A stretch of DNA of 32,000 bases, from contig NC_013967.1 of the NCBI RefSeq assembly GCF_000025685.1, positions 2,070,001-2,102,000 on the forward strand, read 5' to 3'. Shown here piece by piece: positions 1,042 to 15,363 of this stretch. The notes under the pieces were generated by a model. The model ran no database searches and was not told the origin of the DNA. It worked only from the letters and a program-made list of their open reading frames with translations. Position 1 is the stretch's first letter. Every line of letters begins with the position of its first letter. Position numbers and translations under genes: made by a program. Source of the DNA: Haloferax volcanii DS2 (GTDB taxonomy: Archaea; Halobacteriota; Halobacteria; Halobacteriales; Haloferacaceae).

Positions 1042-1836
1042 TCAGCCCAGTTTGTCGTAGGTCGTCTGCTGGGACCGCCAGTAGAGGAATCCACCGACGA
1101 TGAGCGCGACGACGAGCAGACCGCCCGCCGCGTAGATGAGCAGTTGGGTCGTCTGACTGGACTGCCGGGCCTGGTTTGCGCTCGTCTCCGCCTCGTTGGC
1201 GAGGTTCGTCGTGAGACTGAACTCCTCGCCGTTGAACGCTTCGACAGCGTTGGCAAACGTCTGCTCGGCTTGTTGCGTGTTGGCCCCACTCGCACGCTCA
1301 ATCGCGTCCCGCGCGCTGTCGAGTTCGTCCCGTGCGGCGGCACTTTCTTCGGTGTAGTGGTGGACCGACCACGAGTCGATATCGTTACTGGAGCCACCTT
1401 CGCGGGTCTGGTCGAGCGAGATTATCGTGAACGTCTGTGCGGGGTCGTAGCTGAACGACTCCACTTCGGGAACGATTCCCGTTACGGTGACCTCCACTTC
1501 GCTCGTCCCGTCGGCAGTGGCGATCTGCGCGCCGCTGAAGTTCTGCCCGTCAAAGGACTGCTGGTCGACTCTCGCGCCCGTCTGGTCGTAGTACGCGACG
1601 GTCCACGTCACGTCCTCCAGGTCGGTCTGACCCGCGAGCGTCCACGATTCGAGTTGTGGGCTCCGGTACAGTTCTTCGAGGGTGACCGACGCGGTCACCT
1701 GCGAACCGACCTGCGCCTCGTCGGGGACGTCGTCGGACGCGACGCTCACCGCCCCTGCTTGCCCTGCGAAGGCCGACAGGAGTACGACGAGCGCGAGCGC
1801 CAGCTTAGAAAAGCGACTCCAGTTCGTCCTCGTCAT
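1042..1836 (-). CDS. Secreted, C-terminally membrane-anchored protein of unknown function
   Basis: 264 aa. It has an N-terminal Sec-type signal peptide (MTRTNWSRFSKLALALVVLLSAFAGQAGA), a beta-rich region, then a helical Q/S/T/A-rich region. A single C-terminal TM (LLIYAAGGLLVVALIVGGFLYW) is followed by a 13-aa tail. The ATG at 1836 overlaps the last 32 nt of cetZ. Confidence 0.75.
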   Translation of the reverse strand: MTRTNWSRFSKLALALVVLLSAFAGQAGAVSVASDDVPDEAQVGSQVTASVTLEELYRSPQLESWTLAGQTDLEDVTWTVAYYDQTGARVDQQSFDGQNFSGAQIATADGTSEVEVTVTGIVPEVESFSYDPAQTFTIISLDQTREGGSSNDIDSWSVHHYTEESAAARDELDSARDAIERASGANTQQAEQTFANAVEAFNGEEFSLTTNLANEAETSANQARQSSQTTQLLIYAAGGLLVVALIVGGFLYWRSQQTTYDKLG

Positions 1837-2992
1837 CGTTTATGAGGGTCTCCAGATTCGAATCACTCTCTTGACGGATCTCTTCGATGTTATCCTGTGC
1901 TTCGATGGCGACCTGCTGCAGCTCCTTGATGCGCGGGACGTTCGTCACGCCCGACAGAAGGATGACACCCGCCACCTTCTCCGCGCCAGGGATGGGGTAG
2001 TCGCCGCCGCGAACTTCCATGGAACCGGTCTGCTCCTCGATCCACTTCCGCCCGCGCTCTATGCCTTTCCGGTTCAGATGCTCCGGCGGACCAGCGAGCA
2101 CGAGCAGCGCGCGCTCCGCGCCTTCGATTTCACACGGGAGCGTGAGCCGACCGAGCGCGGCCTTGCGGACGAGGCTCGTGATTCGGTTGGTCGTGTGGGC
2201 GGTGTCGAGATTGTCGTCGGGCTCGTCGCCGCCCGTCAGCCGAGACAGGAGGCCGCCGCCGTTGTTCTTCCGCGGCTCGACCCCCTCGGAGGCGTAGCCG
2301 ACCGTCGAAACGCCGCCGCCGGCCAGCGTGTTGATAATCTCCGAGGAGTCGACGACGGACTCCGCGACTTCCTGTCCGTCCTGGACTTCGCCGGCTCCGA
2401 AGAGCACGCCGAACCGGTTGACGATTTCCTCGTTGATCTCGTCGTATCCCCCCTGTACCGACTCGCCGGTCTTCCGCCAGGCGTCGTTGTCGAACACGAG
2501 GAGGTTGTCGACCTCGCGGACGAACGTCTGGAAGGAGCGCGCGGCGTTGAGCGTGTAGATACCACCCTCGTCGGACCCCGGCAGGATGCCGAGCCCGTAG
2601 ACGGGTTCGGTGTAGATGCGCTTGAGGTGTTTCGCGAGGACCGGCGCGCCGCCGGAGCCGGTGCCGCCACCGAGCCCGGACACGACGAGGAAGGCGTCGA
2701 CTTCGTGGACGGGGATGCTGTCGATGGCACCCTGTACCTCGTCGATGTCCTCCTCGGCGATTTCGGCACCGAGTTCGTTGTCCGCACCGACGCCGTGTCC
2801 CTTCACGCGGGATTGGCCGATGAGGACGCGCTGGTCCTTCGGGATGTTCTTCAGTCCGAGCAAGTCGGCTTTCGCGGAGTTCACCGCGACCGCAGCGCGG
2901 ACGATTCCGGCGTTGCGTTCCCGGTCGTACTCGACGAACTTGTCGACTACTTTTCCCCCGGCTTGCCCGAATCCGATCATTGCGAGCTTCAT
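1805..2992 (-). CDS. cetZ: CetZ-family tubulin/FtsZ-superfamily cytoskeletal GTPase (probable CetZ1 orthologue)
   Basis: 395 aa. Starts MKLAMIGFGQAGGKVVDKF and carries the tubulin signature GLGGGTGSGGAP, the T7-like region NDAW, and an acidic C-terminal tail DDEDELESLF. The overall sequence matches my recollection of Haloferax CetZ1. Confidence 0.93.
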   Translation of the reverse strand: MKLAMIGFGQAGGKVVDKFVEYDRERNAGIVRAAVAVNSAKADLLGLKNIPKDQRVLIGQSRVKGHGVGADNELGAEIAEEDIDEVQGAIDSIPVHEVDAFLVVSGLGGGTGSGGAPVLAKHLKRIYTEPVYGLGILPGSDEGGIYTLNAARSFQTFVREVDNLLVFDNDAWRKTGESVQGGYDEINEEIVNRFGVLFGAGEVQDGQEVAESVVDSSEIINTLAGGGVSTVGYASEGVEPRKNNGGGLLSRLTGGDEPDDNLDTAHTTNRITSLVRKAALGRLTLPCEIEGAERALLVLAGPPEHLNRKGIERGRKWIEEQTGSMEVRGGDYPIPGAEKVAGVILLSGVTNVPRIKELQQVAIEAQDNIEEIRQESDSNLETLINDDEDELESLF

Positions 2993-8873: not shown

Positions 8874-11267
8874 TCAGTTCCCGTCCGGACTGTCGTCGGC
8901 GGCTTTGCGTTCTCCCGGGTCAGATCCGTCCTCGATAGACTCGTCTCCGCCCGAGCCGTCGGCCGCGAGGTCGGCCATCGTCGTCGACGACCTCGACTCG
9001 GAGTTCGTCCCGTCCGCGAGCGCGGTTTCAGTATCCTCGTCCCCGAGTTTCACCGCGTCGGCGACGCCGTCACGCGCTCCCTCCTCGCGCACCTCGAACC
9101 GGTCCGCGAGCGCCCGCAGTTCGTCGGTCGCCGACGACAGTTCCTGCATCTGCCCGGCGACGGTGACCATCGCGTCGTTCTGCTCGTGGGCCGCGCCGGC
9201 CGCGTCGGCGGCCTCGTCGCGCGTCTCGTCGGCGATGTCGGCCGCCTCGTCCGCGAGGCGCGCGACCGACTGCGCGGCCGACGCCTGCGAGGTGGTCGCC
9301 TCGTCGACGGCGGCGACGCCGTGGTCCACCTCCTCCAGTCGGTCGACCGCCTCGTCGATGGCCGTGACGCCGGCTTCAACCGTCTCGGAGCCCTGCGCGA
9401 CGCGCTCTCGCGCGGCTCTCACCGCAGCGACCGTCTCGTCGGCCGTCCCCTCGACGGACTCGATGGACGACTCGATGTCGGTCGTCGCGTCGGCGGTCTC
9501 CTCGGCGAGCGCCTTCACTTCGTCGGCGACGACGGCGAAGCCGGAGCCGGCCTCGCCGGCACGAGCGGCCTCGATGGAGGCGTTGAGCGCGAGCAGGTCC
9601 GTCTGCTCCGCGATATCCTCGATGAGGTCGACCACCTCTCCGATGTCCGCTACCTCCTCGCGGAGCGCTTCGACGCCCTCGGCCGCGGTCGCGACGCGCT
9701 CGTCGATGTTCGCCATCTCGTCGTGGACGGCGGCGCTCGCGTCGCGGCCGGCCTCGCCGCGCTCCGCGGCGTCGCCGGCGAGGTCAGCGAGTTCGTCGGC
9801 GGAGGCGGCGACCTCCTCGACCGTCGCCGAGAGGTCCTGCATCTCCGCGGAGACCTCCGCGAGGAGCGACGCCTGCTCGGCCGCGCCCTCGGAGATATCG
9901 GCGGTCGCCGTCTCGACCCGCTCGGAGGCGGCGCTGACCTCCTCGGTGCCGGCGGTGACGCGCTCGCCCGCCGCGTCGACGGTCGCCGCGAACGACGCGA
10001 CCCGCCCGATAGTCGCTTCGAGGTCGGAAAGCATCGCGTCGATGCCGTCGCCGACGGCCGCCATCGCCTCGTCGTCCGATTCGACAGACGTGCGCACCGT
10101 CAGGTCGCCCGTCGCCGCGGCGTCCATCGTCTCGCGGTAGTTCTCGGCGGCGCGCGCGAGGTCGCGGCGGGCGTCTTCGGCCGCTTCGATGCGTTCCCGG
10201 AGGCCGTCTCGCATCTCGGCGAACGCCTCGGTCAGCGCGCCGAACTCGTCGACTCTGCGGGTTTCGAGGTCCACGTCGAGGTCGCCGCCGGCGAGCGCCT
10301 CGGCTCTGGTCCGGAGCCGTCGGAGCGACAGCACCGCGTTGCGGCCGATGACGACGCCGACCAGCGCGAGGCCGGCGAGCGCCACGCCGATGAGGACGGC
10401 CACGTCGCGCTCGACGACCTGCGCGACCGCGTAGGCGTTGGTCTGCGGCGCTTCCACGAGGACCGCCCAGTTCGTCCCCGAGACGGGGGCGTAAGCGACG
10501 ACGTCGCCGCCGGCGTCCCCGTCGCCCTCGCGTTCGACGACGCCCGTCTCGCCGTCGACCGCAGCGTCGAGCGCCGGCGTCGCCGCCCCGTCGCGGTACG
10601 TCGTGAGGACGTTTTCGCCGTACTTGTCGAAGGCGATGACGCCCGTATCGGTCACCACGCGGGTTTGGGACCCCTCGACCGGCTCGCTCAGCATCTCGGC
10701 GTGCTTCGTCGCGTCCACGACGACCATCACCGCCCCGTCGCGTCCCTCGACGGGACTGAGGAACGCGAGGCGCTCGCTGCCGCCGTAGCGGTAGACCTCG
10801 GAGACGGCCACTTCGTCGGGGTCGGCCATCGTCAGCGACCCGGTCGTCCACGACAGGTCGAGGGCGGAGACCGATTTGGTCTCTATCACGCCGTCGGTGC
10901 TGCGGACGATATCGCGGCTCGACGGGTTCACGTAGTGGATCGCCACCACCTCGGCGGGCAGGGTGTCTCTCTCGCGTTCGAGCGCCTCGTCGATGGCGTC
11001 GGGGTCGCCCGTCCGGACGGTCTCGTACGCCGAGAGCATCCGGGCCGTCCGAGCGTAGCCGTCCATCCAACTCGACAGCCCCTCGGCCTCCAGTGAGGCG
11101 ACCATCTCCAGGTCGCTGTGCGTGTCGGCTCTCACCTCGGTCCCGACCACGTCCGAGACGTACAGGCCGAACCCGCCCATCACCGCGGCCACGAGGAGGA
11201 TAACGAACAGAAACTTCCGGAGGTAACTCCGCCTGAGTACCCTCGGAACCAGCGTGGCGAACTTCAT
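8874..11267 (-). CDS. Membrane-bound methyl-accepting chemotaxis transducer (Htr/MCP) with a periplasmic double-Cache-like sensor and HAMP
   Basis: 797 aa from the ATG at 11267. The order is TM1 ([19 protein letters not shown]), a ~260-aa extracellular domain, TM2 ([20 protein letters not shown]), a HAMP-like linker, then the MCP signalling domain. The tip sequence is [34 protein letters not shown] and there is a methylation-type site ATVEEVAAS. Confidence 0.92.
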
Positions 11268-11291
11268 GGCACTCGGTAGCAAGAGACCGAC

Positions 11292-11297
11292 GTAAAG
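11292..11297 (-). promoter_or_regulatory. TATA-like box CTTTAC for the membrane MCP gene
   Basis: Located at -25..-30 from the ATG at 11267. The same hexamer occurs at the same spacing upstream of the gene starting at 4109. Confidence 0.4.
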
Positions 11298-11380
11298 CGT
11301 TGTCCCGCTAACTATCAGTTCTGATAGCAGAGGGGACCCGATATGCGCCGCTCTCACCGAAGGACGAGTTCCGTGAATCG

Positions 11381-12510: not shown

Positions 12511-12771
12511 CGTCGGCCCTTACCGCGCGGTGGTCTTTGCGCTGTCGGTCGCGCGGCGACGGCGCGCCCCGGAACCCGCGAGACGCCTCGAACTTCTGGT
12601 ACATCTGTCGAAGCCCGCTTGTCGTGCTTCGAATCCGAGCGACAGCAAGCGGGCGTACCGTATTCTATCCGTGGTATCACGTAACAGTGGGATACTCCCG
12701 TCACATGAATCATCGATAGACACAGTACCAGTCACGAATTCGTTCTCAGATATGATACCCGAGAGCGTGGT

Positions 12772-12777
12772 CTTATC
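12772..12777 (+). promoter_or_regulatory. TATA-like box CTTATC for the soluble MCP fusion gene
   Basis: Located at -30..-25 from the ATG at 12802, at the end of a ~150-nt visibly AT-richer stretch. Confidence 0.4.
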
Positions 12778-12801
12778 ACTCACCAGAAATCTTCTGGACC
12801 A

Positions 12802-15363
12802 ATGGACGACGACAGCCAGCTCCGGAGACGAGCGTCGTCGGTTCGCGCCTCCGTCCGGGCCGCGCTCGGCGCACGCGCGACCGACGACGAATCCGAATCG
12901 GACGCCGCAGACGAGACGGCGCGCGTCGACGACGCGCGAAGCGACGGCGGGGGCACTCCCTCGGTCGCCGTCGAATCGGGACGCGGGGAGTCTCCCGCCG
13001 ACGATGTCGCCGCGTCGTCGGCCCCGGACGCCGCCGCGCTCGACGGTCTCGACGACTTCTCCGCGGCCATCGAGCGCTGCATCGAGGGCGACCTGACGGT
13101 CCGCGTCGACGTTCCCGACGACCCGGCGCTCGCGCGTCACGGCCGCCTCCTCAACGAACTGTTCGAGGAGTGGCAGACCGCCATGCGGAACGTCGACGCC
13201 TTCGCAGACCAGGTCTCGGCGTCGACCCGAATCGTGGCCGACGCCGCCGAGGAGAGCCGCGAGGAGAGCCGGTCGGTCGCCGCCTCCGTCGACGGCATCG
13301 CGGCGGGCGCGCGCCGGCAAAGCGAGAGCGTCGAGGAGGTCGCAGACGAGATGCGGAACCTGTCTGCGACCATCGAGGAGGTCGCCGCCTCCGCCGACGA
13401 AATCAGGCACGCGACCGACGAGGCCGTCGAGCGCGGCGACCGCGGCAAGCGCGCCGCCGAGACCGCTATCGACGAGTTGGCGGTCATCGGCGAGCGGACC
13501 GACGCGACCGTCGAGCGCGTCGCGGAACTCGACGACCACATCGACGACATCACCGGCATCGCGACCAAAATCTCCGACATCGCGGAGCAGACGAACATCC
13601 TCGCGCTCAACGCCTCCATCGAGGCCGCCCGCGCCGGCGAGGCCGGCTCCGGCTTCGCCGTCGTCGCCGACGAAGTGAAGGCGCTCGCCGAGGAGACGCA
13701 GGCCGCGACCGCCGACATCGAATCGACCATCGAGACGGTTCGGACCCGGTCGGCCGCGACGGTCGAGGACATCACCGACACGAGCGAGCGCCTCGACGAG
13801 GGCAGCGAGACGATTCAGGAGGCGCTGTCGGCGCTCGACGGCGTCGTCTCCGACCTCGAAGAGACGAACGGGAGCCTCCACGAGATTTCCGACGCCACGG
13901 ACTCGCAGGCGGCGACCTCCCAAGAGGTCGTGAGTCAGGCCGACGGCGTCGGCGAGATAAGCGACGAGACCGCGGCGCTCGCGGCCGACGCCGCGGGGTC
14001 GGCGCGCCGCCAGACCGTCTCGCTCTCCGAGGCGGTGACGAAGATAGACGCGCTTTCGGACCAGGCCGACCACCTCCGGGACTCCATCGACGACTACCGC
14101 CTCCACGCCGAGGCGACCGACTCGGGCCAGACCGTCGTCCAGTTCTGGCACGGCATGTCCGGCGACAAGGCGGCGGTCCTGGAGTCGCTCGTCGACGAGT
14201 TCAACGCCGACCACGACGGCGTCCGCGTCGACACCGCGTCGAAGGGGAGCTACCGCGGCACGTTCGACGCGACCCTCGCCGCGGCCCGGTCGGGGACGCC
14301 GCCGACCATCGCGCAACTGTACGAGGTCGGCACCCAGCGCGCCCTCGACAGCGGGGCGTTCACCCCCGTCGAATCGGTGCTTCCGGACAGGGCATCGGCG
14401 GGCGAACTCGTCCCCGAAATCGCCAACTACTACCGCCACGACGGCGCGCTCTGGTCGATGCCGTTCAACGCCTCGAACCCCGTGTTGTACTACAACGCCG
14501 ACGCGTTCGAGCGGGCCGGCCTCGACCCCGACGACCCGCCGGCGACGTTCGACCAAGTCACCTCGGCCGCGGCGACGCTGAAGACGAGCGGGGCGGTCGA
14601 CTACGGCGCGGCGTGGGCGAATTACAGTTGGTTCGTCGAGCAGTGGTTCGCGGCCGCCGGGGAGTGTCTGTTCGACGCCGACAACGGCCGGAGCGGCACC
14701 GCCCGCACCTCGAACCTCGACGGCCCGGTCGGGACGCGCGTGTTCGAGTGGTGGCGCGACCTCGAACGGAACGACTTGCTGTTCGACCCCGGCGTCGAGG
14801 CCCGACGAGACGCCCGCGAGGCGTTCCTCGACGGCCGCGCCGCGATGCTCGTGGACTCCAGTTCGAGCGCCGCGTCGGTCGTTCGGGGGGCCGCCGACCG
14901 CGGGTTCACCGCCGAAGTCGGCCGGTTCCCCGCGCCCGGGTCGTCCCGCGAGGGCGTGGTCGTCGGCGGCGCGTCGCTGTGGGTCGCAGACGGCGTCGAA
15001 TCCCGGAAACGGGCCGCCGCGGGCGAGTTCATCGCGTGGCTGACCCGCCCCGAACAACAGCGTCGCTGGCACCGCCGGACGGGCTACTTCCCGGTTCACC
15101 GCCGGACGAGGGGCCTCCTCCGCGACGACGGCTGGTTCGACGAACACCCCGGCTTCGCGGTCGCGTTCGACCAACTGGCCGAGACCGACGACACCCCGGC
15201 CACCCGCGGCGCTCGCGTCGGCCCCTTCACGACCGTCAGGACCATCGTCTCCGAGGGCCTGTCCGAACTGTTCGACGGCCGCGACCTCGACGCCGTGTTG
15301 GCGACGATGGACGAGCAGGTGTCGGCCCGCCTGTCGGAGTACGAGCACTCAGCGAACCGCTGA
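12802..15363 (+). CDS. Soluble methyl-accepting chemotaxis transducer fused C-terminally to a family-1 solute-binding protein (UgpB-like) domain
   Basis: 853 aa with no hydrophobic segment or signal peptide visible. Residues ~85-435 form a HAMP-like remnant plus the MCP signalling domain. That domain carries the tip [34 protein letters not shown] and methylation-type sites ATIEEVAAS and ATSQEVVS. Residues ~441-853 carry SBP motifs shared with E. coli UgpB as I recall it: [56 protein letters not shown] and WHRRTGYFP. Confidence 0.9.

Follow-up and report, generated by a model that had tools for sequence, protein, structure and literature searches.

Identification of the htr38 Gene

A 32,000-nucleotide stretch of the Haloferax volcanii DS2 genome (NC_013967.1, positions 2,070,001 to 2,102,000; hereafter the window) was analysed with a focus on htr38, a gene whose product joins a methyl-accepting chemotaxis protein (MCP) signalling domain to a solute-binding protein (SBP) domain resembling UgpB, the sn-glycerol-3-phosphate (G3P) binding protein of Escherichia coli. 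The coordinates of all features are collected in Table 1. A reading made earlier from the letters alone (the sequence-only reading) had described a single open reading frame (ORF) here, and the ORF list and translation showed it exactly as described, with the first possible ATG as its start. The frame is closed by a stop 33 codons 5′ of this ATG, so no hidden N-terminal extension of the protein is possible. The translated protein is identical to that deposited for H. volcanii DS2 as ADE03092.1 and UniProt D4GVT6, 'Transducer protein Htr38', and the ORF is therefore htr38, locus HVO_2220. Identical copies are present in several H. volcanii assemblies. RefSeq/PGAP labels the product 'extracellular solute-binding protein', which is misleading for a soluble protein with no signal; the UniProt label is Transducer protein Htr38.

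The coding strand is the forward one. The DNA has a G+C content of about 70%, and an antisense ORF of 942 aa (12520..15348, reverse strand) spans the whole gene. Its translation is rich in R, G, A and V and would not be expected to match any family, and this ORF was rejected as a gene because the translation is nonsense of the kind typical for a high-GC shadow ORF. Upstream of htr38, TCTTATCAC at 12771..12779, centred about 27 nt 5′ of the ATG, would fit a haloarchaeal TATA-like box of a leaderless transcript. In the review 'Taxis in archaea', HVO_2220/Htr38 is entered with 0 transmembrane (TM) segments, no partner and no stimulus, and the stimulus is unassigned for most H. volcanii transducers. 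In a hyper-motile strain free of provirus, the htr38 mRNA was reported to rise (log2 fold change 1.54) together with those of the arl (archaellum) and che genes. The protein has been detected in proteomes and is also among reported stress-regulated proteins.

Htr38 Is a Soluble Transducer with a Complete Signalling Hairpin

Export and membrane insertion were judged by Kyte-Doolittle hydropathy and by inspection for cysteine and for the twin-arginine translocation (Tat) pattern. The highest 19-residue mean anywhere in Htr38 was 0.88, against a reference value of about 1.6 for a TM helix on this scale, and no TM segment was found by hydropathy along the whole protein. Residues 1-90 contain no cysteine and hence no lipobox. 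The N-terminal 'RRR' does not form a Tat signal, since the stretch that follows it holds Arg and is non-hydrophobic. Htr38 is therefore soluble, as the sequence-only reading had claimed from the apparent lack of a signal peptide, lipobox or TM segment. The disordered acidic N-terminus of that reading was borne out as well: 21 of the first 90 residues are Asp or Glu, and in an AlphaFold2 (AF2) model built on 71 family members (mean predicted local distance difference test score, pLDDT, 79.9) residues 1-11 and 23-76 fell below a pLDDT of 50. The N-terminus is also the least conserved region, with 19% mean pairwise identity across the family.

Behind it, the AF2 model showed a helix (75-94), a loop (95-107) and a second helix running onward from residue 108. 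G96, D97 and L98 are at least 90% conserved across the family, and PF00672 (HAMP) is recorded for several homologues. A Pfam HAMP search of Htr38 residues 71-143 and 1-93 gave no match at E≤10, so the label 'HAMP-like' rests on the predicted secondary structure and on the homologues. Thus the HAMP-like remnant proposed earlier stands as a predicted helix-loop-helix, with the Pfam domain itself undetected in Htr38. The mean pairwise identity of this region is 30% family-wide.

The MCP signalling hairpin of that reading was confirmed. Pfam MCPsignal (PF00015) matched residues 217-380 with E=2e-40 (138.9 bits against a cutoff of 34.6 bits), and AF2 predicted an unbroken helical hairpin over residues 108-431 that turns at E280. 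N270, A271, A275, G282, G284 and F285 are invariant at the tip, which is the most conserved region of the protein (71% mean pairwise identity, compared with about 45% for the helical arms). Htr38 thus has the signalling domain with conserved kinase-control tip by which MCPs are recognised. The arms, about 172 and 151 residues long, appear to suit the long heptad classes usual for haloarchaeal Htrs, with 44H as an estimate from helix lengths alone. One of the two methylation-type sites noted earlier is an exact consensus match, in which S188 and E193 are invariant in the family. The other, around residues 370-379, is a near-match read by eye and was absent from the output of the consensus scan. 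After the last MCP helix comes a tether (pLDDT below 50 at residues 431-440) with a mean identity of 23%; across the family the spanning stretch is 32-37 residues long, and the few members that exceed this have 38, 39 or, in one case, 59 residues. With no TM segment and a sensor domain C-terminal to the signalling domain, Htr38 has the layout of the cytoplasmic chemoreceptor class described in PMC9680633.

The C-Terminal Half Is a UgpB-Like Domain with a Largely Conserved Pocket

From residue 444 onward the AF2 model showed a confident two-lobe domain (pLDDT mostly above 90). Pfam SBP_bac_8 matched residues 463-765 (E=4e-43) and SBP_bac_1 matched residues 458-753 (E=7e-32), so that both the full SBP proposed from about residue 441 and the expected combination of MCPsignal and SBP profiles were recovered. 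The NCBIfam UgpB model (PRK10974/NF008211) aligned to residues 440-828 with E=4e-73. The best sequence matches in the PDB were E. coli UgpB 4AQ4 (2e-65) and Phaeobacter UgpB 9LFF (1e-50). With Foldseek, the best structural match was E. coli UgpB 6X84 (TM-score 0.92, root-mean-square deviation 1.9 Å), and the TM-scores to Phaeobacter UgpB with bound sn-glycerol-1-phosphate (G1P; 9LFF) and to 4AQ4 were 0.88 and 0.87. The predicted domain therefore has a two-lobe CUT1 fold superposable on UgpB, in agreement with what the sequence-only reading expected of a structure prediction. With 57% mean identity family-wide, it is the second most conserved region of Htr38, behind the tip.

The ligand contacts were taken from a 2025 PNAS study on G1P- and G3P-bound UgpB (PMC12718374), which gives nine residues in Phaeobacter numbering: Tyr64, Ser143, Ser266 and Tyr342 for the phosphate, Glu88, Gly303 and Arg393 for the glycerol hydroxyls, and Trp188 with Trp191 as an aromatic clamp. 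An offset of +20 in this numbering was verified, all nine residues then matching their stated identity. In the alignment, the phosphate contacts correspond to Y484, S558, S686 and Y762 of Htr38 and the hydroxyl contacts to E508, G723 and R813, while Trp188 corresponds to N607 and Trp191 to W610. Eight of the nine contacts are identical, and each of these is either invariant or absent from no more than one of the 71 family members; the earlier remark that the SBP motifs track UgpB was well founded. Compared with the W-x-x-W of enterobacterial and Phaeobacter UgpB, the clamp of Htr38 carries a 2-residue insertion. N607 aligns with the first clamp Trp (Trp188 in Phaeobacter, Trp169 in E. coli), and W605 and Y608 lie nearby. 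The family pattern is [F/W]-A-[N/T]-Y-[S/A/G]-W, with F first in most genera, Y608 invariant and W610 in 70/71 members. The sister free UgpBs (W-P-N-H-S/T-W) share this spacing, as do many bacterial homologues. As judged by alignment, the phosphate cradle and the diol contacts are fully retained in Htr38 and the aromatic lid is a variant.

Htr38 thus resembles UgpB in its CUT1-type fold and full-length alignment, in the Tyr/Ser/Ser/Tyr cradle, in the Glu/Gly/Arg contacts and in the second clamp Trp. It differs in the displaced first clamp Trp and in a score below the NCBIfam equivalog cutoff. Moreover, UgpB is exported and encoded with UgpA/E permeases and a UgpC ATPase, whereas the Htr38 domain has no signal peptide or lipid anchor, is cytoplasmic and fused to an MCP, and has no such genes beside it.

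The Htr38 Family and the Origin of Its Sensor

Homologues were searched among 5.8 billion proteins, and the family was counted in 90%-identity clusters. The MCP-then-SBP order was found in about 102 clusters, after which the list falls abruptly to ordinary MCPs. The members come from Haloferax, Halogeometricum, Halapricum, Halohasta, Halonotius, Haloarcula, Halorubrum, Halovenus and Salinigranum, and from many metagenomes. Between the tip motif and the beginning of the SBP domain the spacing is constant, at about 183-191 residues. The survey of domain order that had been suggested thus showed the design kept across Halobacteria and never split into two genes. About 20-25 of the 102 homologues, of a 900-945-aa Halohasta/Halonotius type, carry an N-terminal hydrophobic segment (residues ~20-60; e.g. 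P0021, P0068 and P0121), which is probably a membrane hairpin. In all 102 homologues the stretch from the MCP part to the SBP part lacks a hydrophobic segment, and the SBP domain is therefore cytoplasmic in all family members. The N-terminal segment of P0068 reads RRTRLLLGVLGAC and is Tat/lipobox-like, although the MCP part must remain cytoplasmic. In one metagenomic protein of 467 aa (P0141), the N-terminal/HAMP-like part is joined nearly straight to the SBP without the MCP hairpin; either a deletion or faulty assembly may account for this.

A further search, with only the SBP domain as query, covered 1.84 billion cluster representatives. Within the best 150 matches, the Htr38 clade held the only fused ones, and the next matches were free proteins of 440-480 aa with classical haloarchaeal Tat-lipoprotein signals, e.g. 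SRRGFLTTAGAVGALGLAGCS. In a scan of genome contigs, the 600 stretches listed contained mostly bacterial UgpBs. A neighbour-joining tree of 140 sequences placed the 71 fused SBP domains and two fusion fragments in one clade, whose sister comprised P0123 and the free UgpB of Haloarculaceae archaeon H-GB1-1. The latter has a Tat/lipobox signal and heads an operon with two permeases, a MalK/UgpC-type ATPase and a glycerophosphodiester phosphodiesterase (GDPD), which directly adjoins glpK and glpABC. The simplest history would be one capture of a haloarchaeal UgpB lipoprotein, with the MCP replacing the export signal.

Htr38-Like Genes in Glycerol Catabolic Clusters

The surroundings of htr38-like genes were compared in 22 genomes, which are a sample rather than a census and are phylogenetically non-independent. 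In seven of them, from at least three genera and in two gene orders (Table 1), the gene lies inside a glycerol catabolic cluster of glpA/B/C, glpK, DUF7973, ptsH, ptsI and dhaK/L/M. By chance alone, about 1% of genomes should have a given gene within 10 kb of the cluster. This synteny with glycerol kinase, G3P dehydrogenase and dihydroxyacetone kinase genes, seen in Haloarcula, Halohasta, Halonotius and two unclassified haloarchaea, provides independent support for the idea that G3P is sensed.

Two side observations were made in these clusters. The glycerol cluster of haloarchaea has as a conserved component an uncharacterised AAA_16/Cdc6-lid-like ATPase of about 390 aa. It adjoins the htr38-like gene in Halohasta and Halonotius, lies about 3 kb downstream of it in Haloarcula marina and the JGI contig, past glpK and DUF7973, and was found near the free ugpB in contig L007. 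In Halohasta salina (L003, 4107-5642) the glycerol kinase appears as two ORFs (FGGY_N, 302 aa; FGGY_C, 182 aa), whereas a single gene of 510-516 aa is present in Halonotius and Haloarcula; the split is possibly a frameshift, a pseudogene or a sequencing error.

Genes Around htr38 in H. volcanii

A tblastn search with the Haloferax neighbours found no conserved operon partner of htr38. The downstream 447-aa DUF7537-like ORF, the upstream 294-aa ORF and the SBF gene were conserved only within Haloferax, and a cyclophilin gene recurs about 7 kb downstream of the htr38-like gene in Halapricum L001. About 1.4 kb upstream and divergent lies a second transducer gene, encoding an 827-aa membrane-type MCP (weak dCache_1, HAMP, MCPsignal) that is probably Htr36/HVO_2214; two htr genes are therefore clustered there. 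A CetZ tubulin-like gene (CetZ_C 6e-82, Tubulin 4e-31) was found about 10 kb from both transducer genes. The CetZ family is tied to rod shape and motility in H. volcanii. Both genes fit the chromosomal region of HVO_2220.

Table 1. Features of htr38, neighbouring genes in the window, and gene orders around htr38-like genes in other haloarchaea
Feature	Position	Strand	Evidence
htr38 coding sequence, 853 aa + stop	12802..15363	+	ORF list, translation, exact match to ADE03092.1/D4GVT6
Residues 1-74, acidic disordered N-terminus with short basic helix (residues 4-24)	12802..13023	+	Composition, hydropathy, AF2
Residues 75-126, HAMP-like helix-loop-helix (includes LNELFEEW)	13024..13179	+	AF2, conservation, PF00672 in homologues
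Residues 127-431, MCP signalling hairpin, E280 at turn of kinase-control tip	13180..14094	+	Pfam, AF2, conservation
Residues 188-197, candidate methylation site (E192/E193)	13363..13392	+	Exact consensus (regex) match
Residues 432-443, flexible tether between last MCP helix and SBP domain	14095..14130	+	AF2, low conservation
Residues 444-853, complete UgpB-like class-II solute-binding domain (CUT1-type), cytoplasmic	14131..15360	+	Pfam, 4AQ4 alignment, AF2, Foldseek
Clamp segment, residues 605-610, W-A-N-Y-S-W	14614..14631	+	Alignments, family pattern
Other pocket residues Y484, E508, S558, S686, G723, Y762, R813	span 14251..15240	+	Alignment to UgpB, conservation
Second transducer gene, probably Htr36/HVO_2214	8874..11357	-	
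CetZ tubulin-like gene	1805..2992	-	
Halohasta salina, Halonotius terrestris: glpCBA <- -> glpK, DUF7973, AAA_16, htr38-like, ptsH; in H. salina then ptsI, dhaMLK			
Halonotius pteroides (contig extent): glpK, DUF7973, AAA_16 upstream of htr38-like; ptsH downstream			
Metagenome-assembled genome (MAG) A07HN63 (contig extent): glpCBA and glpK fragment upstream of htr38-like; ptsH downstream			
Haloarcula marina, JGI metagenome contig: glpCBA <- -> htr38-like, glpK, DUF7973, AAA_16			
Halobacteriales MAG: glpCBA, htr38-like, glpK			
AAA_16 ATPase loci	L003 6755-7924; L084 7667-8833; L085 14375-15550; L087 14410-15585; L007 7061-8215		

Comparison with Known Receptors and Sensors

To our knowledge, no characterised cytoplasmic chemoreceptor uses the binding-protein fold of an ATP-binding cassette (ABC) transporter as its sensor. 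A sensor C-terminal to the signalling domain is characterised elsewhere, as the CZB domain of Helicobacter pylori TlpD. Periplasmic-binding-protein folds also serve as cytoplasmic small-molecule sensors fused to an output module in the LacI/GalR and LysR-type regulators. The output of those regulators is DNA binding and their folds belong to other subfamilies, whereas the output module of Htr38 is a chemotaxis hairpin. The novelty implied by the sequence-only reading was overstated, given the named gene, the TlpD precedent, the binding-protein folds of LacI and LysR regulators and the SBP_bac_8 domain listed as a C-terminal ligand-binding domain (LBD) in a 2022 survey of archaeal chemoreceptors. 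According to that survey (PMC9680633), 44% of archaeal MCPs are cytoplasmic, some with C-terminal LBDs including SBP_bac_8; 'SBP_bac' is among its LBD families, and its supplementary table gives SBP_bac_8 or SBP_bac_1 as the C-terminal cytoplasmic domain of MCPs in Haloarcula and Halorubrum.

In taking its receptor specificity from a transporter-type binding protein, Htr38 is like BasT/BasB and CosT/CosB of Halobacterium salinarum and like E. coli Tar with maltose-binding protein (MBP) (PMC8050422). In those systems, however, BasB, CosB and MBP are separate secreted lipoproteins or periplasmic proteins that dock on the extracellular domain of a membrane receptor, whereas the Htr38 sensor is fused, cytoplasmic and C-terminal. 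The features of a BasT/BasB-type pair, a membrane Htr with a separate secreted lipoprotein gene nearby, were not seen: Htr38 is a single polypeptide with no TM segment, and no SBP gene lies nearby. The docking proposed below would be an in-cis analogue of MBP-Tar or BasB-BasT. Htr38 shares with H. salinarum Car (Htr11, arginine), with HemAT and with H. pylori TlpD the property of soluble MCPs that read the cell interior. Glycerol sensing by Htr38 would be conceptually akin to Car, which measures arginine intracellularly ('Taxis in archaea'), although the sensing region of Car is N-terminal and unrelated to the SBP domain.

What Does the SBP Domain Sense?

Htr38 is very probably a cytoplasmic chemoreceptor with a functional UgpB-like sensor. 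For its ligand, pocket conservation, phylogeny and synteny tip the balance, by a little, towards an intracellular glycerophosphate. Taken as a whole, a soluble transducer with a captured UgpB-type sensor of intracellular glycerophosphate that drives glycerol taxis is the reading we favour, with modest confidence. Several points weigh against it. A search of the literature on Htr38/HVO_2220 and Haloferax glycerol chemotaxis found no functional study of a ligand, the SBP domain or a mutant phenotype. The pocket was assessed by alignment to the residue list of PMC12718374, the insertion displaces the first clamp Trp and alters the clamp geometry, and the score of 246.3 bits is below the UgpB equivalog cutoff of 411 bits. 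In H. volcanii the neighbours of htr38 are unrelated to glycerol (an MCP, a DUF protein, a cyclophilin and an SBF transporter), and 15 of the 22 genomes (Haloferax, Halorubrum, Halapricum, Halogeometricum, Halobiforma, Haloarcula rara and a short Halobellus contig) have no glycerol linkage. The linker is flexible and unconserved and offers no evident route from closure to the kinase-control tip. A receptor of the same design could instead sense another cytoplasmic metabolite, such as another phosphorylated compound, a polyol or sugar, or inorganic phosphate, with an output unlinked to glycerol. A clamp unlike that of characterised UgpBs, the missed equivalog cutoff and the absence of glycerol synteny from most genomes examined would fit such a receptor. 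So would the near structural neighbours of the domain, which bind dinucleotides, mannitol and oligosaccharides, and the Halapricum htr38-like gene, which lies beside glycogen phosphorylase, GH77 and PGI genes. However, the four phosphate-coordinating (Tyr, Ser, Ser, Tyr) and three hydroxyl-contacting (Glu, Gly, Arg) residues are (nearly) invariant, the sister clade belongs to a ugp operon with a GDPD gene, and the glp/dha synteny recurs in several genera. Another metabolite is on these grounds unlikely, if quite conceivable.

The linker, which argues against rigid conformational coupling, would also suit a domain that no longer senses a small molecule and acts as a protein-interaction, localisation or chaperone-like module, docking the receptor to a partner (such as a transporter or a glycerol enzyme) or stabilising cytoplasmic arrays. 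The review PMC8144458 ('Stress-Responsive Periplasmic Chaperones in Bacteria'), with 49 mentions of UgpB, treats a chaperone function of the E. coli protein; the best structural match, 6X84, is UgpB W169S/W172S, and the stress regulation reported for Htr38 points the same way. Yet the pocket residues buried between the lobes are invariant among members that are 37-50% identical overall, a pattern to be expected of kept ligand binding and not of a surface interaction role, which makes a purely structural role improbable. Barely credible are a surface-exposed SBP domain that senses external G3P, and a fusion that is an annotation or assembly artefact of two genes. Export is suggested by the RefSeq name, by the N-terminal hydrophobic segment of some homologues and by the Tat/lipobox-like start of P0068. 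However, Htr38 has no TM segment, signal or lipobox. CheA/CheW are within reach of the MCP module only if it is cytoplasmic, which places the SBP domain downstream of it in the cytoplasm too. Export was rejected because none of the 102 homologues has a hydrophobic segment past the N-terminus. The artefact was rejected because the single ORF is kept in complete genomes of many genera and in identical copies in several H. volcanii assemblies.

A Possible Mechanism of Glycerol Taxis

For the favoured glycerophosphate sensor, the following course of events can be proposed. Family membership and co-regulation suggest that Htr38 joins CheA/CheW arrays via the conserved hairpin tip. Its sensor would be a UgpB-type domain that lost its Tat/lipobox signal and is attached to the signalling bundle at its C-terminal end by a flexible linker of about 10 residues. 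As the bundle has the form of a hairpin, this end is expected to adjoin the HAMP-like module, which would place the sensor at the usual input end. The best candidate ligand is G3P produced by GlpK from imported glycerol, with G1P or a glycerophosphodiester as alternatives. Binding would close the Venus flytrap and thereby may change the docking of the tethered domain on the HAMP/adaptation region, or on the partner subunit. Such docking would modulate CheA and lead to metabolism-dependent taxis towards glycerol. Ligand-gated docking is favoured over rigid helical transmission because the tether is short, flexible and unconserved. The docking mechanism is proposed with less confidence than the ligand. 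A bolder combination would make Htr38 the first chemoreceptor shown to use a domesticated ABC binding protein inside the cell, reading G3P from glycerol kinase (or telling G3P from G1P) for glycerol taxis by ligand-gated docking on its own HAMP/adaptation region, in place of piston-type transmission. We offer this only tentatively, as somewhat more likely to fail in one of its parts than to hold in all.

The gene and its architecture are already catalogued. The gene is named, and its domain composition is in databases and in the published survey; the value of the work as a discovery is limited for this reason. What remains new is the functional hypothesis of glycerophosphate sensing, which is backed by pocket conservation, phylogeny and glycerol-cluster synteny. 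Genetic work is feasible in H. volcanii and the residues of the pocket are defined, which makes the hypothesis directly testable. Glycerol, released by Dunaliella in salterns, is a dominant carbon source there. Should Htr38 indeed respond to G3P inside the cell, chemotaxis would be tied to the breakdown of glycerol in the dominant organisms of hypersaline brines, and the receptor would represent a new route to receptor specificity, in which the binding protein of a transporter was captured in cis.

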